Virus record (IMG/VR): IMGVR_UViG_3300021364_000005
DNA from: a virus
Lineage: Duplodnaviria; Caudoviricetes
Length of the DNA stretch: 64,000 nucleotides
Direction: 5' to 3' (one strand)
In this document: positions 1 through 40,787 of the stretch, piece by piece
Layout of the letters: the number at the start of each line of letters is the position of its first letter
Position numbering within the stretch: the first letter of the stretch is position 1
Position numbers and translations under genes: made by a program
The notes under the pieces: model-generated
Told to the model about the DNA's origin: nothing
Database searches by the model: none
What the model saw: the letters and a program-made list of their open reading frames with translations, nothing else

Positions 1-660
1 CCTATATTAGGATATTTTCTATATGTAGGACTTGGAATAAGTGTAACCTTCCATAGGTATTTGACACACAAAGCATATGAAACTTATCCTATTTTAGTTA
101 AAATTGGAACTTTGTTAGGATCACTTAGCAATACTGGTAGTAGTATTGTTTGGGTTGCAATACATATGAATCATCATCGTCATGCTGATACTGAAAAAGA
201 CCCACATAGTCCTAGACACCAAGGACTTAAAACTTTTGCATTAGAATACGATTTAGATACCAGTCGTGTTAGATGGAAAATGAAACATCTGATCGGAGAT
301 CCATTCCATATGTTTTTGCATAAGTACTACTTTGCTGTTATTGCAGCTTGGAGTTTGCTTCTGTTTTTAATTGGTGGATTTTATTTAATGGTATTTTTAC
401 ATTGGTTTCCTATGATCATTAGCGGCGTAATGAGTAATATTGTAAACTATATTGGCCATAAGCCAGACTGGTGGGGCGGTTATAGACGTTATGATACTCG
501 TGACGATAGCATAAACAATTGGTTATGGGCAATACCAAGTTGGGGCGAAACACTACATAATAATCATCATAAACGCCCATACAGTGCTACTCATGGAGAA
601 CGCTGGTGGGAAATTGACATCGGTGGTTATATTGTAAGGATGATTCGTACGGATGTTTAA
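1..660 (+). CDS. Delta-9-type fatty acid desaturase, 5'-truncated by the window edge
   Basis: Frame +1 is open from base 1 (PILGYFLYVGLGISVTFHRYLTH). Three His boxes (HRYLTH, HMNHH, HNNHH), TM segments and the WGE-LHNNHH motif. Confidence 0.9.
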   Translation, partial: PILGYFLYVGLGISVTFHRYLTHKAYETYPILVKIGTLLGSLSNTGSSIVWVAIHMNHHRHADTEKDPHSPRHQGLKTFALEYDLDTSRVRWKMKHLIGDPFHMFLHKYYFAVIAAWSLLLFLIGGFYLMVFLHWFPMIISGVMSNIVNYIGHKPDWWGGYRRYDTRDDSINNWLWAIPSWGETLHNNHHKRPYSATHGERWWEIDIGGYIVRMIRTDV

Positions 661-2227
661 AGGTGTTAATTGTATTCTGTTCACAGGCAGTAGTAGAACA
701 GATCCGTTCCGCACACAAGAAAAACTAGACAGTGCATATGCTCAAGTAATACGTCCTTTGGGTGCGTATCAAATTGCAAATTTACTTAGGCAAGAAGGAT
801 ATACTGTACAAGTTATAGACAGATATCCTTGGATTATTAGGAATTCTGATGATTTGTTTCCTATTCTTGAAAGGTATCTAGGTGAAGATACATTATGGAT
901 AGGGTATAGTAATACCTTTTTTGAGCATAGAATACAACAAAGTAAAATAAAAGATGGTTATCAAAGTCCTGAAGCAGACAGTATTGTTCTTAGCGACAGG
1001 GGAGTTCGCTATCTGAAAAGAAAAGCGTATGAAGCAAATCCTAATATAAAATTTTTAGTAGGCGGAGCAAAGACTTGGAGATGGAGCCAAGGCGACGAAA
1101 GGTTATTTGATTACTATGTTGAAGGCTATGCAGACGAAGCAGTCATACGCTTAACTAATTATTTGGCAGGCAAAGGCGAAAAGCCGCCTATGAAAAAGAA
1201 TGATGATGAACATAGTTATACAATTAACTATGATCAAAAAGGCAGCCTGTTTGATTTCAACAATAGTCATCACCATTGGCACGAAAGTGATCATTTAATG
1301 TGGGGAGAATCTCTTCCTATCGAAATTGCAAGGGGTTGTATTTTTAAATGTGCTTATTGTAGTTTTCCATTAAATGGAAAGAAGAAACTAGACTTTATAC
1401 GTGATCCGCAAAAACTCATAGATGAGCTAACAGAAAATTACGAAAAGTACGGAGTCTATCAATACATTTATAGTGACGATACACACAACGATAGTGTAGA
1501 AAAGTTAGAGTTGTTATATAACAAAGTTTATAGTAAACTACCTTTTAAAATTGAATTTAGCACTTACTTAAGATTAGACCTTTTAGCTGCTCATAGCCAT
1601 ACTATAGAATTACTTCACGCAAGCGGATTGAGAGGAACATTTTTTGGAATTGAAAGTTTCAATCATGAAGCAAATAAAACTGTGGGCAAAGGTGCAAGTG
1701 AACAAAAAATCTGGGATAACTTATACAAATGTAAAGAAGTATGGAAAGATGACGTTGTAATACATAGTGGTTTAATAGTAGGATTGCCAAATGATAGTGC
1801 AAAAACTATTACTGCTTGGCTTGAAAAAGCAGTTGCTCCTGATAGTCCTATAGACTTTAGTATGATAGCAGAATTACAAATATTTCCAAAGTGGGGTAGA
1901 GATAGTCACTGGATGAATAAGATAGAGTTAAATCCGGATTTTTACGGTTATAAATTTGATGATCCTGAAAATGACTGGAATTGGACAAATAATACAGGAC
2001 TTACAAAAATTCAAGCTATGGACATTGCACAGGTTTATAGACAAAAACAACTTCTTAATAAACCTAATATGGGATGGATGACTTATTTACGCTGTGCAAG
2101 TGTAGGGCAAACAGTTGAGCAATATAAAAATACAACAATGAAAGAACACGTAGTTATACGAGATAAAGTTTTTCGTGACTACTGTGACAAACTATTAAAT
2201 GCAGACGTTTCAATTCACAGAAAATAA
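653..2227 (+). CDS. Cobalamin-binding (class B-type) radical SAM enzyme
   Basis: N-terminal B12-domain-like PLGAYQIANLLRQEGYTVQVID; EIARGCIFKCAYCSFP (CxxxCxxC); GIES and IVGLP motifs. Confidence 0.85.
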   Translation: MFKGVNCILFTGSSRTDPFRTQEKLDSAYAQVIRPLGAYQIANLLRQEGYTVQVIDRYPWIIRNSDDLFPILERYLGEDTLWIGYSNTFFEHRIQQSKIKDGYQSPEADSIVLSDRGVRYLKRKAYEANPNIKFLVGGAKTWRWSQGDERLFDYYVEGYADEAVIRLTNYLAGKGEKPPMKKNDDEHSYTINYDQKGSLFDFNNSHHHWHESDHLMWGESLPIEIARGCIFKCAYCSFPLNGKKKLDFIRDPQKLIDELTENYEKYGVYQYIYSDDTHNDSVEKLELLYNKVYSKLPFKIEFSTYLRLDLLAAHSHTIELLHASGLRGTFFGIESFNHEANKTVGKGASEQKIWDNLYKCKEVWKDDVVIHSGLIVGLPNDSAKTITAWLEKAVAPDSPIDFSMIAELQIFPKWGRDSHWMNKIELNPDFYGYKFDDPENDWNWTNNTGLTKIQAMDIAQVYRQKQLLNKPNMGWMTYLRCASVGQTVEQYKNTTMKEHVVIRDKVFRDYCDKLLNADVSIHRK

Positions 2228-3152
2228 TTGGTCAAGTTGGCGATACAACGAAGGAGATCTGCATAGTAGAAGTCCTAGTGACGATGCAGTCTTTGAAGTT
2301 GTATACAAGCAACAGCAAGTTAAAATAGGTACACTATGGCAAGAAGCAGTAAAAGGTGCTAAAAGCACTATTGATGCTCATCCTGGAAAAAAGCCTAGTT
2401 TATTTTTTAGTGGGGGTGTTGATAGTGAAGTTATGCTTAGAGCATTTATTCATATAGGTTCTAATCCCGATGTATATATTGTTAGATATAATAATGATAT
2501 AAATTTGTACGATGTAAGTTATGCTGTGTCAATTTGTAATTCTCTTGGTGTTGACTTTAAAATTATTGATATTAATTTGTTTAAGTTTTTTGAAAATGAT
2601 GCAGAACAAATAAGCGAACTTGCACAATGTGATAGACCAAGAATGCTTCCACAGTTATCCTTTGCAGATTATGTAGATGGCCTTCCAATCTTATGTATGG
2701 CAGATATTACATGGCAGCGCAGCGATTCTGATTATACCAAAAAAGGCATTTGGAAAGCATGGGAAATAGAAAGCGACTGTGCGTGTGATAGGTATAATAT
2801 TGCTGTTGGCAGGGAAGCAATTTATCAATGGGGCAGATGGTCACCTGGTATATTACTAGCGCACACAAGATGGGAATGGTTTCATAAACTTATAAATGAC
2901 AAGTATTACGGAAAGTTAGGAAATAGCAGCACTAAGTTTGAAGGATTTAGCAGTGAATTTCCTGATATGATTCCTAGAAAGAAAAAAGTTGGCTTCGAAA
3001 AATGCGAAGATGTTATAAGTGAATTTGAAAGTTTTCTAAAAAAGAAATATAATGGATTACCATTTCGTAGGCAAAGTGAATACACATTAGACGAAATGTG
3101 GTTTAAAATTACTGGTAAGAACTACGCTGCCAATAACGTTTTGGCTCTGTAG
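2199..3152 (+). CDS. PP-loop (adenine nucleotide alpha-hydrolase) family protein, paralog 1
   Basis: LFFSGGVDSE PP-loop after a beta strand; remainder unassigned. Confidence 0.65.
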   Translation: MQTFQFTENNWSSWRYNEGDLHSRSPSDDAVFEVVYKQQQVKIGTLWQEAVKGAKSTIDAHPGKKPSLFFSGGVDSEVMLRAFIHIGSNPDVYIVRYNNDINLYDVSYAVSICNSLGVDFKIIDINLFKFFENDAEQISELAQCDRPRMLPQLSFADYVDGLPILCMADITWQRSDSDYTKKGIWKAWEIESDCACDRYNIAVGREAIYQWGRWSPGILLAHTRWEWFHKLINDKYYGKLGNSSTKFEGFSSEFPDMIPRKKKVGFEKCEDVISEFESFLKKKYNGLPFRRQSEYTLDEMWFKITGKNYAANNVLAL

Positions 3153-4011
3153 AGTTTGTTAAGAAATTTATTGTTTCTTCAATGTTTAAGAATACTTGAT
3201 TCTCTCTGTACCTGTGTTCCATACCATTAATGATATAATCTATTTTCTCACAACCTTGATATTTTGGTACATATATTAATTCATCTTTCCAATTCTTTCC
3301 GTAAAAGATTGGTTTGATAAACAAGTCCCAATAGTTAATAACACTAATAGGTTCTTCTTCTAAGTAAGACAGCCCTTTCATTTGGTAATAGTCCCATGCA
3401 TTACAAAATGCTGTTACTGTGCCGTCTTGTAAAACACTAAGCAATATATGCTCGTCTTTTTCGAAACCCACTGCTGTACGGTCGTTACACAGCGTCTTGT
3501 GTGCCCTTAAACGTGCATACTCTACACTGTTTGCTGTTTCTAGCAGGTAGTGTTTTCCATTATGTACATAAGGATCTGGACCATTAAATCCTTCTACTAG
3601 TGTTGTATTTTTTGGAAGTTTATTTAAGAAAAATGCGTGTAGTATTTGATTAGGTGGGATTTGCAGATCTTCTGATGTAGCAATTATATCATCCTTCACT
3701 TCGTATGGATCTATCTTAATTATTGTTACATCTATATTAAACTTATCTACACAAGCCTTTACGTTTTCTAGTTCATTGTCATTGTAATTAGGAAGATGTA
3801 AAAACGCACAATCTATTTGAATGCCTGCATCTTGAAAAGCTAAAAGGGTTGCTTGACTATCCAACCCTCCGCTAAAACTTAAAATTAAATTATTGTAATT
3901 ATTTTTTATAAAGTTAGCCCGCTCAGTAAACTCCTGTCTAACAGAACCTACTGGGCGGGTAACTGGGTGCAAATCTATATAGAATTTGCCATCTTCAAAA
4001 CCGTATGACAT
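3109..4011 (-). CDS. PP-loop family protein, paralog 2
   Basis: LSFSGGLDSQ PP-loop; no QueC-type C-terminal Cys cluster. Confidence 0.65.
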   Translation of the reverse strand: MSYGFEDGKFYIDLHPVTRPVGSVRQEFTERANFIKNNYNNLILSFSGGLDSQATLLAFQDAGIQIDCAFLHLPNYNDNELENVKACVDKFNIDVTIIKIDPYEVKDDIIATSEDLQIPPNQILHAFFLNKLPKNTTLVEGFNGPDPYVHNGKHYLLETANSVEYARLRAHKTLCNDRTAVGFEKDEHILLSVLQDGTVTAFCNAWDYYQMKGLSYLEEEPISVINYWDLFIKPIFYGKNWKDELIYVPKYQGCEKIDYIINGMEHRYRENQVFLNIEETINFLTNSTEPKRYWQRSSYQ

Positions 4012-4526
4012 TATGCAGTTTTGGGTTTTCTACCACGTTTCTTAGGTGCTTCCTTCTTAGGTGCTTCCTCGGCTAAGCTAGGATCCATTAGCTCTGTAAC
4101 GGTTCTCATCCAAGGGAAGATATTCCATACACGTTCGTGTGCATAATACAAGAACATATTAATAGCTGTTGAAAGTCCAGCAAAGATTGTTGCTGATCCC
4201 CAGCTTCCTGTTACTAAGAAAGGAATAATAAAATTATTAGATGTAATGACTGCACGCCATGTAATCATTTTTAAAACTGCACGAAATTCTCTTTCGTCAA
4301 ATGTCTCGTCTTTTTGCTTTCTAAGCAGCGAGAAAAAATTCCAAATTCTTTCATGTAACCAGTACAAGAAACTATTAATAATAGTAGCAATACCAGCAAT
4401 CTTAAGCCCAACTAGTAAACTACCAGTTGCTAAGAAGCCATTTACTACATGAGAGATTGTAAGTAATACTCTCCATGAAACCATCTTAGAGATAGTTCTG
4501 TATTGTCTTTCATTGAACTTTACCAT
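4011..4526 (-). CDS. Tandem DUF2061-like membrane protein
   Basis: Two copies of R(T/A)xxKxx(S/T)WR...Y(W/Y)xHERxWN; AGGAG SD upstream. Confidence 0.7.
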   Translation of the reverse strand: MVKFNERQYRTISKMVSWRVLLTISHVVNGFLATGSLLVGLKIAGIATIINSFLYWLHERIWNFFSLLRKQKDETFDEREFRAVLKMITWRAVITSNNFIIPFLVTGSWGSATIFAGLSTAINMFLYYAHERVWNIFPWMRTVTELMDPSLAEEAPKKEAPKKRGRKPKTA

Positions 4527-4554
4527 GAGATCTCCTTTTGTATAAAGTACGTAG

Positions 4555-5739
4555 TTATTTATTGATGATTAATTTTTCAGGGATTATTTCTGAATTCATA
4601 CGACCTACTTCAAATTGCTTTCCATGTATTTGTAATCCGTCTGCAAATCCGTGTTCGTAGGCTATAAAATTGCTTGCATTTTTCTTTACATAATCTAAAC
4701 CTTCTAACCATATAGCGTGTTCTTTAGTTCCTTGATAGCCATTTATCCACCAATGATCAAATTCAGAATACCAGTCTAAAGTTGCTTTATCTGCTTGCCA
4801 CCAATTGTCATTCCACGTAGAATATATTAGTGGACGTAATTCTCTTTCGTGTATATGTCTATACACGTCAGCAGTCATATTTTTATGAAACCACCATTTT
4901 TGTTTGTTTGGATTAGCCTCTAACCATCGTTTAATTACGAATGCTTGTTTTGCTACAATTGGTAATCCTTCAGGACACCAATAAAAATACTCAACTACAC
5001 TGTTGTCATACTCTTTAATATGATTAGCAACGGTAATTATGTTAGTAGCTCTGTCAGCAAATCTTACGTAAAATTTACCATTTGAATGTATAAAACATCT
5101 AGGCTTTTCAATACCTAAAACAAGTGCAATTTTTTTCTCTTTATCAAAGCGTTTTCTAACTTCATTGAAATGCAAATAATTAAAACGTGTAACATTTAAA
5201 GGGTTAAGCCCTTCTTTTTTACCTTGTATCCAACTAGCATCTTTAGCAGTTAGCCAATGTTCAAACAGGTATTCTGTCATATCAGTAACTGTAATTTTTA
5301 TTTTAGGATATTTTTTATTGATTTCTTTTAATCTTGGTATAGTTTGTAAATCGTGTTCAGCTGCCGCATTCCTTGGATCTTTATTACTAGGATCTATTAC
5401 AGTGTATTTTCTACTAGCAGATTCCATCGTATTACAAATTAATTCGTCAACGTGTAGTCCTTGACGTAAAAAGCTCATCAAAACATTATGGCTGTCAGCA
5501 CCTCCGCTGTAACTTATCATTATATAATCGTATTCTTCTCTGAGTTGTTTTGCACGTTTATCATACAGTTGATCTAACGTCTCTTTTGGTTCTATATTCC
5601 AAGGAAACATATCCATAGCCAAATTATTAAAATGCCATTTGACTTCTGCATTTTGTGTTTGTGCATAAAAACAAGCATCTAGTTTGCTTTCAAACTCAAT
5701 GCTATTAACAGAGTAATACCCTAGTTTTTTATTCATCAC
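4555..5739 (-). CDS. PP-loop family protein, paralog 3
   Basis: ISYSGGADSHN; co-linear with 8428..9630 (GYY, WHFNN, PW-IEP, GIEKPR, EYFYW, WYSE-D). Confidence 0.7.
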   Translation of the reverse strand: MMNKKLGYYSVNSIEFESKLDACFYAQTQNAEVKWHFNNLAMDMFPWNIEPKETLDQLYDKRAKQLREEYDYIMISYSGGADSHNVLMSFLRQGLHVDELICNTMESASRKYTVIDPSNKDPRNAAAEHDLQTIPRLKEINKKYPKIKITVTDMTEYLFEHWLTAKDASWIQGKKEGLNPLNVTRFNYLHFNEVRKRFDKEKKIALVLGIEKPRCFIHSNGKFYVRFADRATNIITVANHIKEYDNSVVEYFYWCPEGLPIVAKQAFVIKRWLEANPNKQKWWFHKNMTADVYRHIHERELRPLIYSTWNDNWWQADKATLDWYSEFDHWWINGYQGTKEHAIWLEGLDYVKKNASNFIAYEHGFADGLQIHGKQFEVGRMNSEIIPEKLIINK

Positions 5740-5743
5740 AAGT

Positions 5744-5749
5744 TATTTA
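5744..5749 (-). promoter_or_regulatory. T4-late-like TAAATA box, divergent from 5769-5774
   Basis: TAAATA 4 nt before the GTG of 4555..5739; no SD. Confidence 0.55.
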
Positions 5750-5768
5750 CTCAAATAAAACACGTAGA

Positions 5769-5774
5769 TAAATA
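5769..5774 (+). promoter_or_regulatory. T4-late-like TAAATA box
   Basis: ATAAATA-aaactg-ATG(5781); no SD. Confidence 0.55.
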
Positions 5775-5780
5775 AAACTG

Positions 5781-6725
5781 ATGAGTAAAGTTTTTCCTTC
5801 AAAATATCCTATACTTGCTGCACCTATGAATCAAGTATCAGAGGTTAATTTAGCTGTTGCGTGTTATAACAGCGGAATTTTTCCTAGTATAAGCACATTA
5901 TGTTTTGTAAATAATAGACAGATAGATTGGGAAGAATTAACTAGGCAACTTAATTTATACAAAAGTCAAACACAAAGTAACAATTTATTGCTAAGTGTTC
6001 CTGACAAATTATTTTTCAGCGATACATTTCAGTGTTTAAAAGATCAAAAATTATTTTCTCATTTAGAGATTATTTGCACAGATCTAAGACTTAATGATAA
6101 CATAACACTTAGTCAACATGATATTAACAATTTTAATAATTTAAACAATAAATTTCAATCTTGGAAAAATAACGGCTATAAGTTTATCTATAAAAGTTTG
6201 GCTAGATTTGTAATTTATGATATCTATAAAAATTACAAAAATGATTTATTTGATGCATTTGTTATTAAAGGTCCTGATGCAGCAGGAATGGTTATAGATA
6301 GGAAGAACGGTAATAACTTACTACAGGACTGTAATGAAGTTATTGAAAAATGTTCTGATATAAAACTTATTGCATCGGGAGGTATAGGCTCAAAAAAAGA
6401 TATAGATGATCTTTTACATATAGGAGTTGATAGTGTATCTTTAGGAACTATTTTTGCATCTAGTAAGGAAAGTATATTGTCTGAAACAACAAAAACAAAA
6501 ATGGTTAAGGCTGGCGCAAATAGTTTGAATAGATTTGCAAACTCCAATCAAAATGCATTACAGTTTAGTGTTGTCAACAATGACGACTTTAATCATACTA
6601 ATAGTTTAAAACAAGGAATATCTACTGGCAATCAAGGACATATTTTTGCAGGAAAGGGTATACAACACATAACGCAGATTCAATCTGTTAATAACATCGT
6701 TAAGGATTTAGTAAATGAAACGTAA
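5781..6725 (+). CDS. Nitronate monooxygenase/FabK-like FMN TIM-barrel oxidoreductase (divergent)
   Basis: YPILAAPMN start; ASGGIG and VSLGTIFASSKES motifs of the NMO family. Confidence 0.7.
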   Translation: MSKVFPSKYPILAAPMNQVSEVNLAVACYNSGIFPSISTLCFVNNRQIDWEELTRQLNLYKSQTQSNNLLLSVPDKLFFSDTFQCLKDQKLFSHLEIICTDLRLNDNITLSQHDINNFNNLNNKFQSWKNNGYKFIYKSLARFVIYDIYKNYKNDLFDAFVIKGPDAAGMVIDRKNGNNLLQDCNEVIEKCSDIKLIASGGIGSKKDIDDLLHIGVDSVSLGTIFASSKESILSETTKTKMVKAGANSLNRFANSNQNALQFSVVNNDDFNHTNSLKQGISTGNQGHIFAGKGIQHITQIQSVNNIVKDLVNET

Positions 6726-8085
6726 TTTTAGTTTAGATACCTTCTGTCCAGAAGTATATAGTCAAATAGAGATAGATGCAGAAGGTGACTACAAAATATG
6801 TTGCCTAGCAAATTTTGATAAAGACTTTGGTATGTGTTTAGATGAAAATGGAGAAGTAATGAATGTTGCTACCCATTCTATTGAAGAAGCTATCAACAGT
6901 GAAACGCATAAGCAGCATAGATTACAACTAGCAAAAAATGAAAGACCGTTGAGGTGCAGAAGCTGCTATGATAGCGAGGATGCAACAAAAGGGTTGGCAG
7001 AATGGGGTAAAAGTGCTAAGAGGGGTAGAAGTAAGCGTCAACGTGTATTATGGCAAACTGGTGCAAGTATACCTGAATATGTAAAGTTTGAACAAGCTGA
7101 ACAAATGACAAATGCTGACGGAAGCACTTCTGCTAAAGTTGTTAATTTAGATCTACGTTTTGGTAATCTTTGTAACCAAAAATGTATCATGTGTAGTCCC
7201 CAGCACAGTAATTTATGGTACGATGATTGGGTTACGCTAGGCTATGGTGATCCTTTATATAATAGAGATAAAGGTATCTATAAAAAAGGCGATGCAAAAA
7301 CATTTAAATTTTACAAAGATGAACACGGAAAAACAAAAATGACAGGCACTGAGCGTTGGTGGGAAACTGATACTTGGTGGGAATCATTTGATAAGATTGC
7401 TCCCGACCTGCGATACATTTATTTTACTGGAGGCGAACCTTTGGTTGTTCCTGCGATGCAAGAATGCTTAGATAGATTAATAAATGCGGGATATGCTGAA
7501 AACATACAGTTAAGATATGATACTAATTTAAGTGTAATAAACAAAAAAGTTATAGATAAATGGAAGCATTTTAAAAAAGTTTGGTTGTGTGTTAGCATAG
7601 ATGATACTGAAGAAAGATACAACCTTATAAGATTTCCTGGTAATTACGATAGAATAAAGGCAAATACTTTACAGTTAAAAGAAGCAGGAATACCTATTCA
7701 TTACATAAGCACTTGTGTAGGTATTGCAAGTCCGTATAGTGTTATACGTATTAGTCAACTTGCAAAAGAACTAGAAGTAGATACATATTTTAGATTTCTA
7801 GAAGGTCCTAACTGGTTAGATATTAGGAATTATCCTGCTAGTGCAAAACAAGAAATAATAGAAAATTTACAAAAGCATAGCGGCGATCCACTTTATGACA
7901 AGTGGGCAAAAGGTGAAATAAAACTTTTACAAAAGTATATGGATCATAGTGAAGAAAAGTACCTAAAAGAATTCATTAGAGTAATGGATATACTCGATGA
8001 GAATCGGGGAACTAATTGGAGGTCTGTGTTAACAGATGTAGTAGATTTGTTTAAAAATCATTGTCCTCATATATACAAAGATTAA
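6715..8085 (+). CDS. Radical SAM enzyme with N-terminal twitch/SPASM-like Cys domain
   Basis: DLRFGNLCNQKCIMCSP (CxxxCxxC); FTGGEP; SID; N-terminal CP...KICC...CRSC. Confidence 0.85.
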   Translation: MKRNFSLDTFCPEVYSQIEIDAEGDYKICCLANFDKDFGMCLDENGEVMNVATHSIEEAINSETHKQHRLQLAKNERPLRCRSCYDSEDATKGLAEWGKSAKRGRSKRQRVLWQTGASIPEYVKFEQAEQMTNADGSTSAKVVNLDLRFGNLCNQKCIMCSPQHSNLWYDDWVTLGYGDPLYNRDKGIYKKGDAKTFKFYKDEHGKTKMTGTERWWETDTWWESFDKIAPDLRYIYFTGGEPLVVPAMQECLDRLINAGYAENIQLRYDTNLSVINKKVIDKWKHFKKVWLCVSIDDTEERYNLIRFPGNYDRIKANTLQLKEAGIPIHYISTCVGIASPYSVIRISQLAKELEVDTYFRFLEGPNWLDIRNYPASAKQEIIENLQKHSGDPLYDKWAKGEIKLLQKYMDHSEEKYLKEFIRVMDILDENRGTNWRSVLTDVVDLFKNHCPHIYKD

Positions 8086-8390
8086 AGATTTTCTTCCATA
8101 GTCCTTGAAATACAAACAATTTCACAAGCTGTGTTGTATTCTAATTCTCTAGCCTGTTCGGCCATCCATTCTGCATCATTTGTTACATCATTCAAGTCTA
8201 CACTATCAACCCATTCGCTCACATATTGTATAACTAATTTAGAGTCATCTAAAAAAGATGCTTCTCTAAACTTAGTGCATAGTCCTGTGTCAATAGCAAT
8301 TTCTTGAATGTGATCTAAAAAAGACTGTTGTGGTGCATAAAATTCTACCTCTGTGTGAGGACGAATAAACTGTCTTGTAAATCTTTTCAT
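8082..8390 (-). CDS. Small hypothetical protein (about 102 aa)
   Basis: ATG at 8390 with GGAGA SD is preferred over the TTG at 8417. Confidence 0.6.
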   Translation of the reverse strand: MKRFTRQFIRPHTEVEFYAPQQSFLDHIQEIAIDTGLCTKFREASFLDDSKLVIQYVSEWVDSVDLNDVTNDAEWMAEQARELEYNTACEIVCISRTMEENL

Positions 8391-8417
8391 TTTTAATCTA
8401 TCTCCGTTTTGTTCCAA

Positions 8418-8423
8418 TAAATA
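8418..8423 (+). promoter_or_regulatory. T4-late-like TAAATA box
   Basis: ATAAATA-ctat-ATG(8428); no SD. Confidence 0.6.
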
Positions 8424-8427
8424 CTAT

Positions 8428-9630
8428 ATGTTAAAACACAAAGCACTTGGTTACTATGTTGTTAATGGCAAAACTTTTTCTAGTAAGATTGCTGCTTGTA
8501 TTTATGCAACGCAAAATCATGCAAGTATAAGATGGCATTTTAACAATGAAATATTTGATTATTATCCCTGGCACATAGAACCTGAAGAAAGTTTAGATGA
8601 ACTTTATTATCGTAGAGCTAGGCAACTGCGTGAGCAGTACGATTATATCTGTTTAGCATTTAGCGGAGGTGGTGATAGTAACAACATACTAGAAGCATTT
8701 TTGCGTCAAGGATTATTCATTGATGAAGTTGTAACAAACATCATGGATGATAAAAATAAACTTACTACCAATAATAGTTTACAGATTAGTAATTGGAACG
8801 AAGGTGCTGAGTATAAACTCCAAACTGTAGATAGACTTAAAGAACTACAAAGTCGATCTCCTAATACTAAAATAAGTGTTATTGATCTAAGTAAAGGATT
8901 GTTTGAAATATTTAATTCCTACGGAGATGCAGGTTGGATAGAAAAAACTAGAGAACGAATGAACCCTAGCGGATTTATGCGTCATAATTTTTTACACATG
9001 AAAGAAATACGTAAAAGATTTGATAAAGATAAAAAGATTTGTATGTTATTAGGAATCGAAAAACCTCGCACTTTTGTAAAAGATGGTATGTTTAAAATGG
9101 CTTTTAGCGATAAGGCTGTTAATATAGCTACAGTATCAGAGTTTATTGAAGACTACGACAATACAGAAGTAGAATATTTTTATTGGCATCCTGATGCTGC
9201 TGCAATAATTGCCAAGCAATGTCATGTTATAAAGCGTTGGTTAGAATTCAATCCTAGATTTTTAAAGTATTGGTTGCCTAAAGACACAGGCGAAATATGG
9301 AGTAACCATAGGAAGTATCACGAAAGGATACTTAGACCTTTGATATATAATTCAACATGGCATGAAACTTATTGGCAGGCAAATAAAAGTACTAAAGATT
9401 GGTATTCTGAAATTGACGACTGGTTTTGGAAGCAACACAGCGGAACAAAGGAACACGCTATATGGAGAGCCGGTTTAGATTATGTCAAAGAAAATGCAAA
9501 AGATTGGATGATGCCTGGTGACACCGAAGGTTTAAAAGGATTTTTGCATAGTTATGATATTGGAAAACTAAAAACTATTAATGCAGGTCAACCCACACAC
9601 CGTTCGCATATGCTTGGACTTTATTCGTAG
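8428..9630 (+). CDS. PP-loop family protein, paralog 4
   Basis: LAFSGGGDSNN; clear paralog of 4555..5739. Confidence 0.7.
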   Translation: MLKHKALGYYVVNGKTFSSKIAACIYATQNHASIRWHFNNEIFDYYPWHIEPEESLDELYYRRARQLREQYDYICLAFSGGGDSNNILEAFLRQGLFIDEVVTNIMDDKNKLTTNNSLQISNWNEGAEYKLQTVDRLKELQSRSPNTKISVIDLSKGLFEIFNSYGDAGWIEKTRERMNPSGFMRHNFLHMKEIRKRFDKDKKICMLLGIEKPRTFVKDGMFKMAFSDKAVNIATVSEFIEDYDNTEVEYFYWHPDAAAIIAKQCHVIKRWLEFNPRFLKYWLPKDTGEIWSNHRKYHERILRPLIYNSTWHETYWQANKSTKDWYSEIDDWFWKQHSGTKEHAIWRAGLDYVKENAKDWMMPGDTEGLKGFLHSYDIGKLKTINAGQPTHRSHMLGLYS

Positions 9631-11167
9631 TAGTATTGTAAATCATCATACCATTTTCGCCAGTCAGTGCATCTCTTGTAGTAGTATCCATATTTGCTAA
9701 TTTAGCATAGTTACCGAACGTTGTTCCTTGGTCTGGTTTAAATGTAGCAGCTATTGCTGTACTACCTGCTGCATCTGTTGTGTGTATTTCTACATTAGTT
9801 GGTACTACATTAGTGCTAACTGTTCCATCTACCTTAGCTACAATTTTTGCACTATCTATATAGTCAGTGCCGTCATGTCCTCTCCATTGGATTCTATGCA
9901 ATACGTCAGTGTCTTGTACTGCTGCTGGAGCGGTAGTTGTTCCTCTACTAAATGCAAGTCCTAGTCTTGGACCAACGCCAGGAAAGTTTGTTGCGCCAAT
10001 TGAATAGAAAGGCATTCCTGTTGGAGCTGATGTTATACCTGCATGAATACCAAAAGTTCTAAATGTTCCTGCACTGTCAATACTTGCTCGTGTAATTGGT
10101 GCACCTGAACTATTGTTAGTAACAAATTCAAGTAGGCCTGGTAATTGTTCGTCAGCTACTGTGCCGTCAGGGTCAACACTTGCTTTGATACTTGCGTTAG
10201 AACTTATATCATTACCGTCCCAGCCGCCAAAGATAATTTGTCCTGTTGCGTCACCTGCTTGTACAGGTGCCGGACTGTCTATAGTGCCTCTATTGAATAG
10301 TACACTTATAGTTGCTCCGCCGTTGTCATCATAGAATCTCTCAAAACGTCCAGCTGCAAAAGCATAGTTGTCTGCTTCACTTTTAACTAGTATTCTGTCT
10401 AATGTTGCTGTTCCTTTTACAGCTTCTGCTAGTAAACTACCCGCAACACCGTCTACTAGTAATGTGCTACCGTCTGAATAAACACTACCTGTTAAGTCGC
10501 CATCTACACTACCAGTTACATCTCCAGTTAAGTTACCAGTTACATTACCAGTTACAGAACCTGTATATTGAGCAGACGCTCCATCGGCACTTGGATTTAA
10601 AACTGTTACTAGACCGTCGTTAGATTTAACAGGACCTAGTAGTTCTCCAGTTACTGTTCCGTTAACATCACCTACTAAGTCACCTTGAAAGTTTGTTGAA
10701 ACAACATTTGTTGCAACAACATTACCTGTTAAATCACCAGTAACGTTACCTGTTAAGTCACCTATAAAATCGTTTGCTGTCATGGTTGACGCTGCCATTT
10801 CTAAATTGCCAGTATCTACCATTGTTGAGCTGTCGCTGCCTAAAATGTTTATTTCGTAAGAATTGCCTGCAACAACACCATCTCCTGTACCGCCTGATGG
10901 TGCCGGAACTGTTACCCATGCACTTTGTGATGCATTATATTGTAAGTACTCACCGTCGGCTACTGCTCCTGCTTCTACATCGGTAAGGTCTGTTAATACA
11001 GTAGCACCGCCACCGCCGCCACCTGTAGTATCAACTGCAACACCGCCTGCTGTTGTTCCGTCTCCTACAAATAATTTTTTGGTATCAGTTACATAAACTA
11101 ATTCACCTTCTGCTGGTGTAACTAGTAAACGTTCTGCGTCTGTTCCTCTTCTTAAGCGTAATGCCAT
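9578..11167 (-). CDS. Tail fibre-like structural protein
   Basis: N-terminal MALRLRRGT...EGELVYVTDTKKLFVGDG anchor motif typical of large myovirus fibres; GDLTG/GNVTG repeats; two RGT-x-xPxxVQxxD modules. Confidence 0.7.
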   Translation of the reverse strand: MALRLRRGTDAERLLVTPAEGELVYVTDTKKLFVGDGTTAGGVAVDTTGGGGGGATVLTDLTDVEAGAVADGEYLQYNASQSAWVTVPAPSGGTGDGVVAGNSYEINILGSDSSTMVDTGNLEMAASTMTANDFIGDLTGNVTGDLTGNVVATNVVSTNFQGDLVGDVNGTVTGELLGPVKSNDGLVTVLNPSADGASAQYTGSVTGNVTGNLTGDVTGSVDGDLTGSVYSDGSTLLVDGVAGSLLAEAVKGTATLDRILVKSEADNYAFAAGRFERFYDDNGGATISVLFNRGTIDSPAPVQAGDATGQIIFGGWDGNDISSNASIKASVDPDGTVADEQLPGLLEFVTNNSSGAPITRASIDSAGTFRTFGIHAGITSAPTGMPFYSIGATNFPGVGPRLGLAFSRGTTTAPAAVQDTDVLHRIQWRGHDGTDYIDSAKIVAKVDGTVSTNVVPTNVEIHTTDAAGSTAIAATFKPDQGTTFGNYAKLANMDTTTRDALTGENGMMIYNTTTNKVQAYANGVWVDLH

Positions 11168-11209
11168 GCTGACAACTCCTAAAATACATTCTATAATGTA
11201 TTTATGCCT

Positions 11210-11554
11210 TTATCTTCTTTTCTTCATGAATAAAGCAGTGCGTTTTTGTATATCTGCTTTAACCTTTTTAGTATCTAGTCTAAAGTCAACATTGTCGATA
11301 TTTTCTCCGTATTCATCAAAAAAATCACCAACAATGGTTTCTAAATCAGTTTTACCTTTGCGAGCTTTAGGACGTAAATCTACTTCCCAAATTTTGCCAT
11401 CTTTAAAACTGACTCGGATAGCAGCCAAGTACTCAAGGGGTACAACTTTAACGTCAATATCCTTGAGTACTTCTGGCCAATGCTGAACAACATCTTGGGG
11501 GAGTTTTCCTGTTTTTTTAGGCACTGCTCTTAGTTTTACGCTTTGTAGGAACAA
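11210..11554 (-). CDS. Hypothetical protein
   Basis: Fits the operon packing; start uncertain. Confidence 0.55.
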   Translation of the reverse strand: MFLQSVKLRAVPKKTGKLPQDVVQHWPEVLKDIDVKVVPLEYLAAIRVSFKDGKIWEVDLRPKARKGKTDLETIVGDFFDEYGENIDNVDFRLDTKKVKADIQKRTALFMKKRR

Positions 11555-12134
11555 GTTCTTCTGCTTGTTCTCTTAGCTTTTTAGCTTCCTTAAATAGGGC
11601 GTCTGCTTGCGAACGATACTGTGCGGCAAGATCTTCATCAGTTAATACACCGTCAGTACTAGGTTGTGCTTCGCTTACAGGTTGTTCTACTTTTTCTGGC
11701 TGTTCAGCTACAGATGGTTCTCCTAAATCTCTTTGTCTAGGGGCTTGCTCACTCATAGCAAGATCTTCAATTGAAATACCTTTTTGCTCAGCAATCAACC
11801 TGTTAAGTTCATCTAAACTTACACTTGTTTGTGTATTAGGTACCATTTCGATTTCACTTGTTTTCATTTTAACAAGTTTTTGGCTAGCATGAAAACGTGG
11901 CAGCATTCTACTACCATCATTTAAAAGTGCTCTATCCATTGCTTGGCCAAACTCTTGTGCAGTTTGACCTGCATTACTTTCAAGAAGATTAATCACAGCA
12001 TCATGATCTTCTGGTGAAAGATTTTCTGTTGGCAGTATTAAACAACTATTCGGATCGCCTGGAATAGTTCTAAATACTACTGCACATTTTCTCTGGTTGG
12101 ACTTAATACGTCCAACGTGATTGAGATTAGCCAT
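11517..12134 (-). CDS. Hypothetical protein with C-terminal coiled coil
   Basis: 205-aa ORF coupled to its neighbours. Confidence 0.7.
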   Translation of the reverse strand: MANLNHVGRIKSNQRKCAVVFRTIPGDPNSCLILPTENLSPEDHDAVINLLESNAGQTAQEFGQAMDRALLNDGSRMLPRFHASQKLVKMKTSEIEMVPNTQTSVSLDELNRLIAEQKGISIEDLAMSEQAPRQRDLGEPSVAEQPEKVEQPVSEAQPSTDGVLTDEDLAAQYRSQADALFKEAKKLREQAEELVPTKRKTKSSA

Positions 12135-12411
12135 TCACTGCTGCCTCAACTGCTGCGTCGGTAGTAGCTTCTGCTTGTGCTTCATTAGCTTGCTGTGATG
12201 CCGCAATGGCAGCTAAGAAGTTTTCTAGTTTGGTGTAGGTTTGTCCTACAACGGTCATTTCGTTTGGTTTAAATGCACCGCGTTGGCTTGCTACATCAAT
12301 AATAGTTTTTAATGCACTCAAGTCCTGTACTGTAAGATCTACAGGAGGAGCAGCAGCTTCTGTTGCTTGCTCGGTCTGAGGTGCTTGAGTTTCAGTTGTT
12401 TGTTCAGACAT
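12127..12411 (-). CDS. Small acidic hypothetical protein
   Basis: ATG at 12411 after AGGAGA SD; TAAATA upstream. Confidence 0.65.
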   Translation of the reverse strand: MSEQTTETQAPQTEQATEAAAPPVDLTVQDLSALKTIIDVASQRGAFKPNEMTVVGQTYTKLENFLAAIAASQQANEAQAEATTDAAVEAAVNG

Positions 12412-12450
12412 TATTTTATCTCCTTTGTGCAAATATTTATTGTGTCTAAA

Positions 12451-12747
12451 TTAGTTATACTTTAAAAGTGGACAAGCTAACATGAAATAACTAAGTTCTT
12501 TTTGATTTTCAAATCCAACTGTAAGTTTTGTTTGCATTGTTCCATCCTTTACTACGGTTCTTGGAGTAACAAAGTATCTACCTTTTAAGTTTGTATCAAT
12601 CCATCTTGTGATAGAATCTTGTAAGTTATACCTTTGTTCTAAATCAACAGTGTCAAAAAACTCCGGCAAGAAATCTACTTTCCTGTTACCGAATATATTT
12701 AATGGATTTGGTTCTTTAAGCCGCGTCATAGTGAACTGTCTGACCAA
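12451..12747 (-). CDS. Hypothetical protein
   Basis: 98-aa ORF in operon context. Confidence 0.6.
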   Translation of the reverse strand: MVRQFTMTRLKEPNPLNIFGNRKVDFLPEFFDTVDLEQRYNLQDSITRWIDTNLKGRYFVTPRTVVKDGTMQTKLTVGFENQKELSYFMLACPLLKYN

Positions 12748-14029
12748 ATGGTCCTTCTAAGTTTTTATCTCTGTTGCTGTGAATTAAAAATACTGTATCG
12801 CAGTAGTCTGGGTCACCCCATGAATCCCAAGCATACCCGTCTGTAAACATAATAAACTTTTTAGGTTGTATGTCTTGTTCTTTCATATAGTTCCAGTTGC
12901 ACATAAAATCAGTGCCGCCACCGCCATAAATTTCATAATCGGTTAACGTTTCTCCGCCGTCTGCTGTAAATGTTTGTTCGTTGTATACAGCAGTATCAAA
13001 ACACCATACAGTAATTTTGTAATCTTTGTATTCGTCCATAATGCCTTTAATTTCACTTAAGAAATCTTTAGCTTGTGCATCACCAATAGACCCGCTCATA
13101 TCAATACTAACACAAAGATCAATAGTGTCCTCAAAGTTCATACCTGGAAGTATTGCACCAGTATGCCATGCTTTGCGTGATGGGCGACTAAATGTATAAT
13201 CATTGCGTATTGTGCTTTGAATCTGTTGACGCAAAATTTCACGCCAATTCATTTTAGGCTCAGTAAGCTCTTTAATCATACGCTGTACTTCACCAGGCGT
13301 ATTGCCAGCACCTGCTGCCTGTGCAGCCTGCATTACACCTTCTTTAATTTCATCTTTAATTTTGCGAAGTTCTTCTTTAGAATACTTAGGTTTGCCTTTA
13401 GAAACAGCGTTGCCGTTGCTGTCAGTAGTTTCTTCACTACCGCCACCTTCGCCTTCGTCGTCTCCGTCTAGGTCTAGGTGCTCGTCTAACAGTTCACCTA
13501 ATTGCTTAAGGTATTCTTCACCATTCTTCTTTGCTTCTTCGTAAATGTCATCATACACATCTTCTGATGACCAGTTATCATATTTAAAGTCTTGGAAGCA
13601 ATCTACAAGTTTAGGTTTTTCACCAATACGATCACGTACAAGCAAGTTGTTTACAATATAGTCGGCAGCAATGTTATAGATAAGTGGTATTCTATCACCT
13701 CTACGTCCTAAATGATCAAATACGCAATGTAGGATTTCGTGTGCAATAACAAACTCAATTTCCTTGTTTGACATTGCATTAAAAAATTGTGTGTTGTAGT
13801 AAAGGTTACGCCCATCAACCGCCGCTGTAGGACACCAATCATCACCGCATACAATTCTAAGACGTGTAGCCATGTTACCAAAGAACGGATGTCGAAGCAA
13901 CAAACCAACTCGTGCAACGACAATTCTGTCTAAGACTTCTACACGCATTGCTTCTAATGCTTCTTGCGAAATATCCGGATCAGGTGTCCAGTGTTTCGTG
14001 CCCTCTAAGTTTCTCATTGGATATGCCAT
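12716..14029 (-). CDS. Metallopeptidase-like (HEXXH) plus VWA-domain protein (DUF2201-like), MoxR partner
   Basis: AHEILH Zn motif; MIDAS DMSGS; GGGGTDF; FTDG. Confidence 0.85.
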   Translation of the reverse strand: MAYPMRNLEGTKHWTPDPDISQEALEAMRVEVLDRIVVARVGLLLRHPFFGNMATRLRIVCGDDWCPTAAVDGRNLYYNTQFFNAMSNKEIEFVIAHEILHCVFDHLGRRGDRIPLIYNIAADYIVNNLLVRDRIGEKPKLVDCFQDFKYDNWSSEDVYDDIYEEAKKNGEEYLKQLGELLDEHLDLDGDDEGEGGGSEETTDSNGNAVSKGKPKYSKEELRKIKDEIKEGVMQAAQAAGAGNTPGEVQRMIKELTEPKMNWREILRQQIQSTIRNDYTFSRPSRKAWHTGAILPGMNFEDTIDLCVSIDMSGSIGDAQAKDFLSEIKGIMDEYKDYKITVWCFDTAVYNEQTFTADGGETLTDYEIYGGGGTDFMCNWNYMKEQDIQPKKFIMFTDGYAWDSWGDPDYCDTVFLIHSNRDKNLEGPFGQTVHYDAA

Positions 14030-17728: not shown

Positions 17729-18142
17729 TTAATTTGTCAAGCAAAATTCTTCCTCAATATACCGTTTTAGTTCATGATCCCCGACATTTTCAGGTAGTTC
17801 TTTTTTATAAAATAGTCTATAACTGTCTGATCCGTACTTACCAATTCCGTATAGTTCTGTTGCATCATTTCCGTCCCAGTCACCGAACTGTTCACTCATG
17901 CGATATAGTCTTTCTGCTCTTATCCTACGCATACCAAGTGGTGCAATTACTTCTTCAATCTCTTTGCGTGTTGCATAAAGCAATGCTTCATGGGTTGGCC
18001 AGCGTTTGAAAAATTTAGGAAGTACAGATTTAACTTGTTTTCTTCCAGTTTGGTTGAGACATATGACACCTACCATATGCTGCCATATGTTATCTACCTG
18101 TTGTTGTACCATTAAATCGTCACGCATGGTTTCCTCATACAT
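17729..18142 (-). CDS. MBD4-like HhH-GPD DNA glycosylase
   Basis: CLNQT...PLG...ELYGIGKYGSDSYRLF...DHEL closely follows the MBD4 glycosylase-domain motifs, including the catalytic Asp. Confidence 0.85.
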   Translation of the reverse strand: MYEETMRDDLMVQQQVDNIWQHMVGVICLNQTGRKQVKSVLPKFFKRWPTHEALLYATRKEIEEVIAPLGMRRIRAERLYRMSEQFGDWDGNDATELYGIGKYGSDSYRLFYKKELPENVGDHELKRYIEEEFCLTN

Positions 18143-19114: not shown

Positions 19115-19269
19115 TATAGTCCTGCCTCCCTAGCACGTTTTTCTAAATCTACGTCTGCTTCTTTACGATTAACTGCATCGTATGAAGGATAACCTTTTTC
19201 AAATACAGGAGCTTCAAATGCTTGTTCATGCTTCTTTGCTTTCTCCACAGTCTTAGGTCCCCCATGCAT
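19114..19269 (-). CDS. Small hypothetical protein (51 aa)
   Basis: Fills the gap between queE and 18713..19114; it is the 3' part of the track ORF 19114..19671. Confidence 0.4.
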   Translation of the reverse strand: MHGGPKTVEKAKKHEQAFEAPVFEKGYPSYDAVNRKEADVDLEKRAREAGL

Positions 19270-20149
19270 TTCCGAATAAGCTAATGTGGAGTCTTGGACT
19301 GAATCGCCATCCTCGCTCCATGCACGAGTTGGCCACTTCTGCCACGTTAAGATTATACTCTTCCGAACGTCCGCCAAGCGGCATAAGATATACTGGACAC
19401 TCGACGCCTGCATCACGATATTCTTGAACAGCACGACCAACTTCTTCAAAGTCGTCCATACTAGCCACGACAAATTTAAAATACTGGCTACTGTTAGTAA
19501 CACTGGCGTAATCACTAGCAACATCAGGCAAGATAGCATCACTCCAAGATTCTCCTGAAACGGAGAGTTTAGGCGAACAACTAAATGTTGTTTTGAATCT
19601 TGCATTGTCTGAAAGATATCGCTTGAAATCTTTGTGTAAAGGTTGTGTAGTGTTTGTTTCAAATGTAACATTTTTTAAGTCCCTCATTTTCGGATGTTCA
19701 AACAGCTCGACATACAGTCGTTGCCAAGCAAGTAATGGCTCACCGCCAGTAAGAATAAGATGAATGTCTTGTCCATTATCCATAGTCCATTTACCTTCTG
19801 GTAGTAAACTAATCAAATGATCAACAACTTCATCTACTTCTGCTAGTTTGTTAAAGTGTTTAAACTCTGGATAGATGCTTGCATATGTATCACAGCCTGT
19901 ATGAATGATAGGCAAGTCCTCAAACTTTTCTGTAGTCTCGTGTACACCTGCATCGAGCAATGCTTTTACTTCTGCATTGTAACGCTGACCTTCTGCGTGC
20001 TGTTCCCAACGATCTTTTTTAGTATCAACACCAAAGTTCATACAACGAAAGTTACAACCAAAGGTACGTAGGAACACACTAGGTACTCCTACGTATTTGC
20101 CTTCGCCTTGTACGCTATAGAACGCTTCACTATACCTCAGTTTCATCAA
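19253..20149 (-). CDS. queE: 7-carboxy-7-deazaguanine synthase (radical SAM)
   Basis: E-FYSVQGEG-YVG-PSVFLRT-GCNFRC...GCDT; LTGGEP; FETN; SPKL; RLH. Confidence 0.9.
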   Translation of the reverse strand: MMKLRYSEAFYSVQGEGKYVGVPSVFLRTFGCNFRCMNFGVDTKKDRWEQHAEGQRYNAEVKALLDAGVHETTEKFEDLPIIHTGCDTYASIYPEFKHFNKLAEVDEVVDHLISLLPEGKWTMDNGQDIHLILTGGEPLLAWQRLYVELFEHPKMRDLKNVTFETNTTQPLHKDFKRYLSDNARFKTTFSCSPKLSVSGESWSDAILPDVASDYASVTNSSQYFKFVVASMDDFEEVGRAVQEYRDAGVECPVYLMPLGGRSEEYNLNVAEVANSCMERGWRFSPRLHISLFGNAWGT

Positions 20150-20414
20150 CGTCCTCCATAATATTTTCTAAATCATCAAACGATGCTACATATTTTTTAT
20201 TTGATCGATCATCTAGTACTTCTACTAATCGACTAGCAGTATCACGTGCAACCAATGCACCTGTGCTTGTGTAATTACCGTATTTTGCAACAGGTAAGTC
20301 TGCCATGCTATACATACCACCTGGACGACCAAATTGATCTAGTGGAATATCTTTTACTGTAAATGTACAGTTGTAAGATTTACCTGGGGTAATATTTTCA
20401 ATTGAAATACTCAT
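20130..20414 (-). CDS. Hypothetical protein
   Basis: ATG overlaps the folE stop (TAATG). Confidence 0.6.
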   Translation of the reverse strand: MSISIENITPGKSYNCTFTVKDIPLDQFGRPGGMYSMADLPVAKYGNYTSTGALVARDTASRLVEVLDDRSNKKYVASFDDLENIMEDVDETEV

Positions 20415-21097
20415 TAGCAAGCAAACTCCTGTTGCAGTTTAATATTGTCAAAGAACTCTTTCTTTGTACCCGGATCGTCTTTAAATGCACCTTTTAGTAC
20501 AGTTGTTTGTGTTAAACTACTATGTGCCATAATGCCACGGTTCTCACAACAACCATGTGTTGCTTGAATATACACACCTAAGTGTTCTGCATTAGTTGCT
20601 AGTTGAATTTGCTTTGCAATTTCGTTTGCAAGTTCTTCTTGCAGTGTTCCACGTCTAGCACACCACTGTGCAATACGTGTATACTTACTAAGTCCAATAA
20701 GTTTCTCAGCGGCAATAATACCAATGTATGCAGTACCTACTACTGGCTGATGATGATGTGAACACATACTTTTTAGTTCTGATCGAACTACAAGCATACC
20801 TTCGTATCGTTCTTCTGAATCATTTGGAAATGCTGTTGCACCCGGCTTTGGATCGTAACGTCCTGCCATAATTTCATTAAAGTACATTTTAGCAAGGCGT
20901 CTTGCTGTACCTTCTGAATTTGGGTCATTAAGACGATCAATTACAAGTGCATCTAGCACACTTTCGAATGCTCTAGTAGCATCGTTAATTAATTCTTCTT
21001 TATCACCACGTTGTAAGACTTGTGAAATATTATCGCCAGCCCAGTAACGGATGCCAGCGTCTTCTAGTTTTTGTTTAATTTGTCTTGCTTTGCTCAA
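20414..21097 (-). CDS. folE: GTP cyclohydrolase I
   Basis: SMCSHH, IGLSK, RR-TLQE, ATHGCCENRG; TTG start with GGAG SD. Confidence 0.95.
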   Translation of the reverse strand: MSKARQIKQKLEDAGIRYWAGDNISQVLQRGDKEELINDATRAFESVLDALVIDRLNDPNSEGTARRLAKMYFNEIMAGRYDPKPGATAFPNDSEERYEGMLVVRSELKSMCSHHHQPVVGTAYIGIIAAEKLIGLSKYTRIAQWCARRGTLQEELANEIAKQIQLATNAEHLGVYIQATHGCCENRGIMAHSSLTQTTVLKGAFKDDPGTKKEFFDNIKLQQEFAC

Positions 21098-40760: not shown

Positions 40761-40787
40761 AATTGTTTCCTTTTTAGTATTTATCTA

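Follow-up and report, generated by a model that had tools for sequence, protein, structure and literature searches.

Virus-restricted PP-loop proteins of an uncultured aquatic phage as candidate relatives of AsnB-type amide synthetases

Asparagine synthetases such as Escherichia coli AsnB and human ASNS are proteins of ~550 amino acids that carry an N-terminal nucleophile (Ntn) glutaminase domain with a cysteine at position 2 and a synthetase domain with an SGGxDS PP-loop and a helical C-terminal subdomain. The synthetase domain adenylates a carboxylate and then forms an amide. Beta-lactam synthetase, carbapenam synthetase (CarA), and the hydroxyamidotransferase TsnB9 are AsnB descendants recruited for the amide chemistry of secondary metabolism, while lasso peptide cyclases are AsnB-derived enzymes that catalyze ATP-dependent amide (isopeptide) formation and often have a degenerate N-terminal domain. 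Here, we examine four PP-loop genes located between positions 2199 and 9630 of a 64,000-nucleotide stretch of an uncultured Caudoviricetes virus from a seawater metagenome (IMG/VR record IMGVR_UViG_3300021364_000005), hereafter the window. An earlier, sequence-only reading had placed these genes in a single uncharacterized phage pathway. Our analysis suggests that they encode new, almost exclusively viral variants of AsnB-type PP-loop amide synthetases that have expanded in aquatic jumbo phages.

Sequence and fold of the PP-loop proteins

A six-frame scan of the 64-kb window retrieved exactly four SGGxDS motifs, against 0.02 expected from composition, and all four fall in the open reading frames (ORFs) that the sequence-only reading had singled out. 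P0001 (2199–3152, plus strand, 317 amino acids, SGGVDS followed by Glu) belongs to a family that we term A2, and P0002 (3109–4011, minus strand, 300 amino acids, SGGLDS followed by Gln) belongs to family A3. P0003 (4555–5739, minus strand, 394 amino acids, SGGADS) and P0004 (8428–9630, plus strand, 400 amino acids, SGGGDS) are two copies of family A1, designated A1a and A1b. The PP-loop residues are invariant or at least 90% conserved in each family: SGGVDSE is invariant in 30 A2 homologues; S47, G49, and D51 of the A3 motif SGGLDSQ are invariant and S52 nearly so; and in the A1 motif SGGGDS, S79, G81, and D83 are invariant, with G80 and S84 close to it.

The two A1 copies are co-linear paralogs, as had been proposed, with 49% identity over 385 residues (E 9e-134). 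In pairwise BLAST, P0001 and P0002 share only the PP-loop region with the other proteins. Profile–profile comparison with hhalign linked A3 to A1 (probability 97%, E 2e-11, 162 columns) and to A2 (96.7%, E 3.5e-10, 249 columns, with a common C-terminal K-x-x-G-x-E motif); the A1–A2 comparison was marginal (64%). The earlier description of all four proteins as paralogs is thus apt at the superfamily level, where A3 bridges A1 and A2, and close paralogy is restricted to the A1 pair. Database searches recovered 274 A1, 222 A2, and 60 A3 clusters at 90% identity, with no precomputed Pfam domain and no informative name among them. A tree of 69 A1 proteins resolved several clades and placed the two window copies in different, well-supported ones, A1a falling in a large clade whose members are usually flanked by an NMO-like gene, A3, or DUF2061. 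Because the two A1 copies of a freshwater relative split between the clades in the same way, the A1 duplication is old, with both copies retained.

AlphaFold2 models were obtained for P0004 (pLDDT [predicted local distance difference test] 86, pTM [predicted template modeling score] 0.87) and P0001 (pLDDT 92.8, pTM 0.90). In an exhaustive structural comparison, each model matched E. coli AsnB best (1ct9; Z 13.1 over 288 residues for P0004 and 14.6 over 263 residues for P0001), with human ASNS (9b6c; Z 12.3 and 14.5), beta-lactam synthetase (1jgt; 10.8 and 13.4), TsnB9 (7ylz; 9.9 and 10.2), and CarA (1q15; 9.6 and 10.8) also scoring highly. These five matches align 244–288 residues of the models. 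Across the two models, dozens of solved PP-loop enzymes give Z values of 6–14.6, but NadE, LarE, NcsA, TilS, GuaA, and QueC reach only 6–8.8, leaving AsnB 4–6 Z units above them. Foldseek searches of the PDB, Swiss-Prot models, AFDB clusters, and the ESM Atlas agreed with this ranking. The structural search that the sequence-only reading had called for therefore puts the AsnB-type synthetase domain first for A1 and A2, and both predicted models include the C-terminal helical subdomain. Compared with PDB sequences, the A1, A2, and A3 profiles alone gave nothing significant. A widened superfamily profile that includes A3 (A5) matched QueC, NadE, TtuA, and MnmA in the PDB (E 8e-5 to 2e-4), and this result, together with the hhalign links, places A3 in the same superfamily.

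No Ntn glutaminase domain is present: the phage proteins are 300–400 amino acids long, the P-loop begins at residues 47–79, position 2 is not a cysteine, and no glutamine amidotransferase Pfam model matches. Cysteine columns conserved at 90% or more are absent from A2 and A3, and the single one in A1 lies in the N-terminal mini-domain. These observations bear out the earlier statement that the proteins have neither a QueC-type Zn-Cys tail nor a glutaminase domain. They also exclude a zinc site of the QueC kind, as well as the thiolation chemistry that other PP-loop enzymes perform with cysteines or Fe-S centers: the catalytic or Fe-S-ligating cysteines required by TtuA/NcsA/TtcA, MnmA, ThiI, and LarE were not found in A1–A3. 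Without a glutaminase domain, a QueC Zn-Cys motif, or a conserved cysteine, amide formation is a likelier outcome than sulfur transfer.

Relative to the described AsnB-type enzymes, the phage proteins share the SGGxDS PP-loop and, in the models, the helical C-terminal subdomain, and would be expected to adenylate a carboxylate before forming an amide. They differ in being ~10% identical to AsnB and ASNS, much shorter, almost wholly viral, and reduced to a 45- to 60-residue remnant where the glutaminase domain and Cys2 would be. Beta-lactam synthetase, carbapenam synthetase, and TsnB9, which give the next-best Z values and the top Foldseek matches, offer a partial parallel. The glutaminase domain of the lactam synthetases is inactive, much as the phage proteins have none, but these synthetases and TsnB9 retain the full two-domain architecture. 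Moreover, the phage island contains no CarB/CarC-type or hydroxamate-pathway partners, unlike the carbapenam and TsnB9 systems. The nearest predicted-structure relatives of A2 are standalone "asparagine synthetase domain-containing" proteins in AFDB clusters (315–329 amino acids; template modeling score 0.63–0.66, E 7e-16 to 7e-8); these are uncharacterized, only 15–19% identical to A2, and may in some cases derive from phage contigs binned into metagenome-assembled genomes (MAGs).

The families are concentrated in uncultured marine and freshwater jumbo or T4-like phages, with hundreds of relatives in aquatic phage contigs, and the Atlas clusters are 93–100% viral. Searches of 50,697 GenBank phage records with P0001, P0002, and P0004 (tblastn) and with positions 1–12000 (megablast) returned no match, and no A3 relative was found among 185,579 species-representative genomes. 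With the A3 profile, 654 clusters at 50% identity were retrieved, the distant ones being unannotated PP-loop proteins. Whole jumbo-phage records carry three to seven scattered A2/A3-type copies, including two records estimated to be complete (354 and 524 kb). Together with the invariant ATP-binding loop and the several A1 clades, this copy number agrees with the earlier view of uncharacterized, diversified phage PP-loop enzymes. A further PP-loop family of ~416 amino acids with weak LarE/DndC-like matches occurs in related islands (12 loci, cluster f16; e.g., L015:5526–6776) and was not found in the window.

Genomic context of the PP-loop genes

The window encodes T4-type replication and structural functions, including DNA polymerase, clamp loader, baseplate, fiber genes, and an endolysin. 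Its polymerase is at most 49% identical to that of any GenBank phage record, with the best matches in Sinorhizobium phage Phosso and Agrobacterium phage Atu_ph07. Near-identical DNA was found in ~10 marine, estuary, and marsh studies, and the longest contig on record with these PP-loop proteins is 303,728 bp. Elsewhere in the window, genes for an NAD-dependent epimerase/dehydratase, a phosphomannomutase, and a cytidylyltransferase-like protein (27240–28671 and 38804–39874, both minus strand) point to synthesis or modification of a glycan by the phage as well.

The island containing the PP-loop genes opens with the 3′ part of a DesA-type membrane fatty-acid desaturase gene (1–660, plus strand; PF00487 E 9e-17, NF049918 E 2e-26). 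This is the second copy of a tandem pair; the first copy lies upstream of the window and was seen in the source contig L083, with a GNAT gene 5′ of the pair. The same contig extends the island with an Asp/Asn hydroxylase and three further N-terminal-twitch radical S-adenosylmethionine (SAM) enzymes (L083:1431–2600, 3886–5016, and 6867–7892), giving four such NF033640 members within ~20 kb. Downstream of the desaturase is a B12-type (class B-like) radical SAM enzyme (653–2227, plus strand; PF04055 E 6e-14; PF02310 22.9 bits, below the cut-off), which weakly matches PhpK, ladderane-lipid, and HpnJ-type B12 radical SAM families (E 1e-13 to 1e-18). A2 follows on the same strand. A minus-strand run comprises A1a, a DUF2061 membrane protein with two repeats (4011–4526; PF09834 E 1.4e-29), and A3 as its final gene; the phage DUF2061 copy has a lysine-rich C-terminal tail. 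On the plus strand, an NMO/FabK-like flavin mononucleotide oxidoreductase (5781–6725; PF03060 E 2e-19, FabK TIGR03151 E 9e-10) precedes the window's twitch radical SAM enzyme (6715–8085; NF033640, 292.8 bits; cut-off 170). Both radical SAM genes and the flavoenzyme are as the sequence-only reading described them. Between this gene and A1b is a small minus-strand ORF (8082–8417) of a ~102- to 111-amino-acid family kept only in close relatives (cluster f63), with no Pfam, NCBIfam, or PHROG match. The 3′ end of A1b overlaps by 53 nucleotides a convergent fiber-like gene with an Mtd_N domain, which marks the island boundary (9578–11167, minus strand; PF18454 E 1.3e-11; PHROG tail-fiber matches).

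Start and stop codons overlap repeatedly within the island. The desaturase runs into the B12 radical SAM gene by 8 nucleotides (653–660) and the latter into A2 by 29 (2199–2227); DUF2061 and A3 share 1 nucleotide (4011), and the NMO-like and twitch radical SAM genes share 11 (6715–6725). These overlaps tie the desaturase to the B12 radical SAM enzyme and the latter to A2, DUF2061 to A3, and the NMO-like enzyme to the twitch radical SAM enzyme.

We next surveyed 82 loci, dereplicated to 48 groups. Within four genes of A1, A2 or A3 was present in 33 groups, a TctC-like gene in 21, an NMO-like gene in 19, DUF2061 in 13 (directly adjoining A1 in 12), a fatty-acid hydroxylase in 11, a twitch radical SAM gene in 9, a desaturase in 7, and a fiber-like gene in 6. 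At closer range, A1 lies within two genes of A3 in 29 of 31 cases; counted per A1 gene, an NMO-like gene is no more than two genes away for 18 of 69 and a TctC-like gene for 23 of 69. The neighbors of A2 (n = 21) are of another kind: a desaturase in 12 cases, a fatty-acid hydroxylase in 6, a B12 radical SAM enzyme in 5, and A1 in only 4, with GNAT-like families f42 and f43 or an acyl carrier protein (ACP) also nearby. The ACP (PF00550 E 9e-9, with a DSL motif) stands beside A2 in two loci (L036:3164–3388 and L077:7701–7937, both minus strand) and beside the B12 radical SAM gene in a third (L065:2346–2573, minus strand); the related islands with ACPs also encode a Rieske oxygenase and a GDSL-like hydrolase. 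The single pathway envisaged earlier is only partly supported, since the A3–A1 and A2–A1 linkage patterns divide the four genes into at least two modules, best read as co-resident in a hypervariable region of auxiliary metabolic genes (AMGs).

The TctC-like proteins beside A1 carry signal peptides (e.g., L002:11148–12062 and 12144–13055, L016:6831–7763, and many related loci), and a DctP-type binding protein occurs as well; these secreted proteins are candidate AMGs for carboxylate uptake. The ~300-amino-acid neighbors of A1 in L002 were considered as A2 or A3 equivalents and rejected, as they are these unrelated TctC-like proteins.

Cellular homologues of the twitch radical SAM enzymes (loci L085–L163, among the 185,579 genomes) come mostly from Bdellovibrionota MAGs, often several per genome, and none has an A1–A3 neighbor. 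The radical SAM context is therefore uninformative as to PP-loop function. One of these loci, a 32.9-kb Crocinitomicaceae MAG contig (L099, Flavobacteriales), encodes three twitch radical SAM enzymes along with close homologues of the window desaturase (E 6e-47) and B12 radical SAM enzyme (E 2e-74). Either this contig comes from a phage and was mis-binned, or it offers a clue to the host.

The sequence-only reading had also pointed to TAAATA boxes before several genes, and the motif holds up in the form ATAAATA: 12 of 22 copies in the window lie no more than 40 nucleotides upstream of a same-strand start, where ~0.6 would be expected. Within the island, copies stand 29 nucleotides upstream of the DUF2061 start at 4526 (4556–4562, minus strand), 6 nucleotides upstream of the NMO-like start at 5781 (5768–5774, plus strand), and 4 nucleotides upstream of the A1b start at 8428 (8417–8423, plus strand); a GTAAATA variant precedes the A1a start at 5739. 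Other copies lie on the minus strand at 11199–11205, 40778–40784, 47698–47704, 58216–58222, and 63336–63342, and fiber-like genes are among those preceded. The canonical T4 late box, TATAAATA, was rejected as the promoter motif because it is depleted (1 copy; 9 expected). Since ATAAATA boxes are common to island and fiber genes, late expression of the island is plausible. Two contigs from DNase-treated marsh metatranscriptomes are 100% identical to parts of the A1b gene (8562–8835 and 9441–9614); with DNA carry-over possible, these fragments hint weakly at A1b transcription.

Candidate substrates and rival explanations

The reading that we tentatively favor, at a little short of an even chance, is that these virus-restricted AsnB-type PP-loop enzymes act in two modules on acyl chains or small carboxylates. 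The four genes encode predicted adenylate-forming PP-loop enzymes of three virus-restricted families, which would descend from the C-terminal synthetase domain of AsnB/beta-lactam-synthetase-type class-II amidotransferases after loss of the glutaminase domain. The most economical mechanism, given the fold class, would convert ATP and a substrate carboxylate to an acyl-AMP and pyrophosphate, with free ammonia or an amine then attacking to form an amide. A2 would be the end of an overlapping GNAT–desaturase–desaturase–B12-type radical SAM–A2 operon whose likeliest role is tailoring of an acyl or lipid-like chain; relatives add ACP, fatty-acid hydroxylase, and Rieske oxygenase genes to it. A3 and the A1 copies would make up another conserved unit, which also takes in DUF2061, the NMO-like flavoenzyme with the twitch radical SAM enzyme coupled to it, and, in relatives, the secreted TctC-like proteins. 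The probable task of this unit is to amidate or ligate some other small carboxylate or an envelope component. Among the products that the sequence-only reading had offered, a small molecule, or an acyl version of it, fits the context best, and it is the context (desaturase, fatty-acid hydroxylase, and ACP near A2) that argues for it.

Several observations weigh against this assignment. With E 0.01 as the limit, PF00733 matches none of the four ORFs, which leaves the AsnB link dependent on predicted structures at ~10% identity; weak PF00733 matches are confined to a subset of the distant superfamily members and of the Atlas clusters. Gathering the surveyed loci through A1, with flanks of 10 kb, introduces a bias into the linkage counts, and neighbors in a hypervariable AMG island need not cooperate. 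ACP genes are limited to three locus groups, the island of this phage has none, and the twitch/SPASM-type radical SAM enzymes with the upstream Asp/Asn hydroxylase fit peptide substrates equally well. The ATAAATA box is also merely 4–6 nucleotides from two start codons (NMO-like gene and A1b), which is odd for a promoter and would imply either near-leaderless transcripts or another role for the motif.

The most serious rival, which we nevertheless regard as unlikely, is that the island tailors a peptide or protein. The product would be akin to a ribosomally made, post-translationally modified peptide (RiPP) or a modified virion or fiber protein, with isopeptide or macrolactam bonds or with amidated Asp, Glu, or C-terminal carboxylates. 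Lasso cyclases, Dph6, and nitrile-forming AsnB homologues serve as models, and the polypeptide concerned would also be the target of the twitch radical SAM enzymes and hydroxylases. In favor of this rival, the best structural matches fall in the fold class to which lasso-cyclase-type chemistry belongs; four N-twitch/SPASM-type radical SAM enzymes and an Asp/Asn beta-hydroxylase are encoded in the island; and the island ends at a fiber-like gene and has the ATAAATA box in common with fiber genes. Against it, Pfam and NCBIfam scans of the island proteins yielded no leader peptidase and no match to lasso B-protein or RiPP recognition element families. Nor was a conserved small precursor gene found, the 102- to 111-amino-acid ORF being present in only 5 locus groups. 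The fiber tailoring proposed earlier is undercut by the rarity of a fiber-like gene near A1 (only 6 of 48 groups), an association confined to near relatives of this phage. In addition, the genes that regularly accompany A2 encode membrane desaturases or hydroxylases, with an ACP in some cases, and the cellular twitch radical SAM homologues stand apart from A1–A3.

Alternatively, A1 and A3 could amide-link an imported di- or tricarboxylate, siderophore-like or for storage, in concert with TctC/DctP and DUF2061, a form of iron/carboxylate-metabolite chemistry that we judge improbable. The linkage of A1 to TctC-like, DctP-type, and DUF2061 genes described above favors it, as does the richness of the islands in iron enzymes. 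Bacterial DUF2061 homologues are also listed among iron-limitation-induced, Fur-regulated genes in Caulobacter and Shewanella (PMC3751524, PMC12442407). Against this, the argument rests on context, the TctC gene frequently lies on the other strand and may serve as an AMG for uptake in its own right, and no TctC-like gene is present in this window's island. To our knowledge, siderophore amide synthetases have other folds. Modification of tRNA or other RNA (TilS-, TtcA-, or MnmA-like), or a housekeeping amidation to the benefit of host metabolism, as in the synthesis of NAD, GMP, or Asn, is very improbable. Profile matches to NadE, MnmA, and TtuA in the P-loop region speak for it, but they span only the shared nucleotide-binding core, and none reaches an equivalog cut-off. 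A1–A3 also lack the catalytic cysteine and Fe-S ligands, a Pfam scan found no RNA-binding domain, and three to seven copies per genome are hard to square with a single housekeeping step.

Least probable of these alternatives is nucleobase or DNA modification, such as amide ligation on 7-carboxy-7-deazaguanine (CDG) by non-canonical QueC-like enzymes, which the sequence-only reading had connected with the dpd cluster. A2 and A3 do match QueC weakly (PF06508 18.2 and 19.3 bits; phrog_1550 E 4e-6 and 2e-5), and the window has FolE, a QueE-like gene, and a phosphoribosyltransferase at 19–22 kb. These genes are part of a minus-strand cluster that looks like a partial 7-deazapurine-type set: an HhH-GPD glycosylase-like gene (17729–18142), a QueE-like radical SAM gene recognized by PHROG only (19253–20149), GTP cyclohydrolase I (20414–21097), and the phosphoribosyltransferase (21429–21998). 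The ORF at 22391–23437 has no Pfam match, and no QueC match reaches the cut-off among the scanned window ORFs. The QueC scores of the phage proteins fall below the PF06508 threshold of 22 bits and, at 16 bits, far below the 150 bits of TIGR00364; they are confined to the P-loop region, and the Zn-binding cysteines are missing. Only the PP-loop core is common to both, and the structural Z for QueC (6.4–7.0) is well below those of the AsnB-type enzymes. FolE and QueE, ~10 kb away, accompany A1 only in close syntenic relatives, and QueC matches occur in one of four carrier records. The sequence-only reading had named a survey of dpdA against fiber co-occurrence; beyond the fiber counts given above, it yielded no TGT/DpdA match in nine A1-carrying phage records, two estimated to be 100% complete and seven incomplete, although the Pfam TGT model may miss a divergent DpdA. 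The CDG proposal thus finds little footing in either fold or context.

Candidate roles in aquatic phages

Within the acyl and small-carboxylate reading, a more specific role can be sketched, although we give it only a low probability. Late in infection, aquatic phages would introduce amide bonds into lipids of the host envelope or into other carboxylate metabolites, with A2 acting on ACP- or lipid-bound acyl chains and A1 and A3 on a second carboxylate associated with TctC and DUF2061. The A1–A3 proteins are small and soluble, and A1 and A2 are confidently modeled.

PP-loop and AsnB-type amide synthetases are well understood in cells, whereas the three phage families have no Pfam, NCBIfam, or PHROG model, occur in multiple copies, and are absent from cultured-phage records. 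Their partners suggest that these phages encode a chemistry, acting on lipids or on carboxylate metabolites, that is missing altogether from current AMG catalogues. If the amide-linkage reading is true, it would represent a new class of phage-directed envelope or metabolite remodeling with no cellular counterpart.

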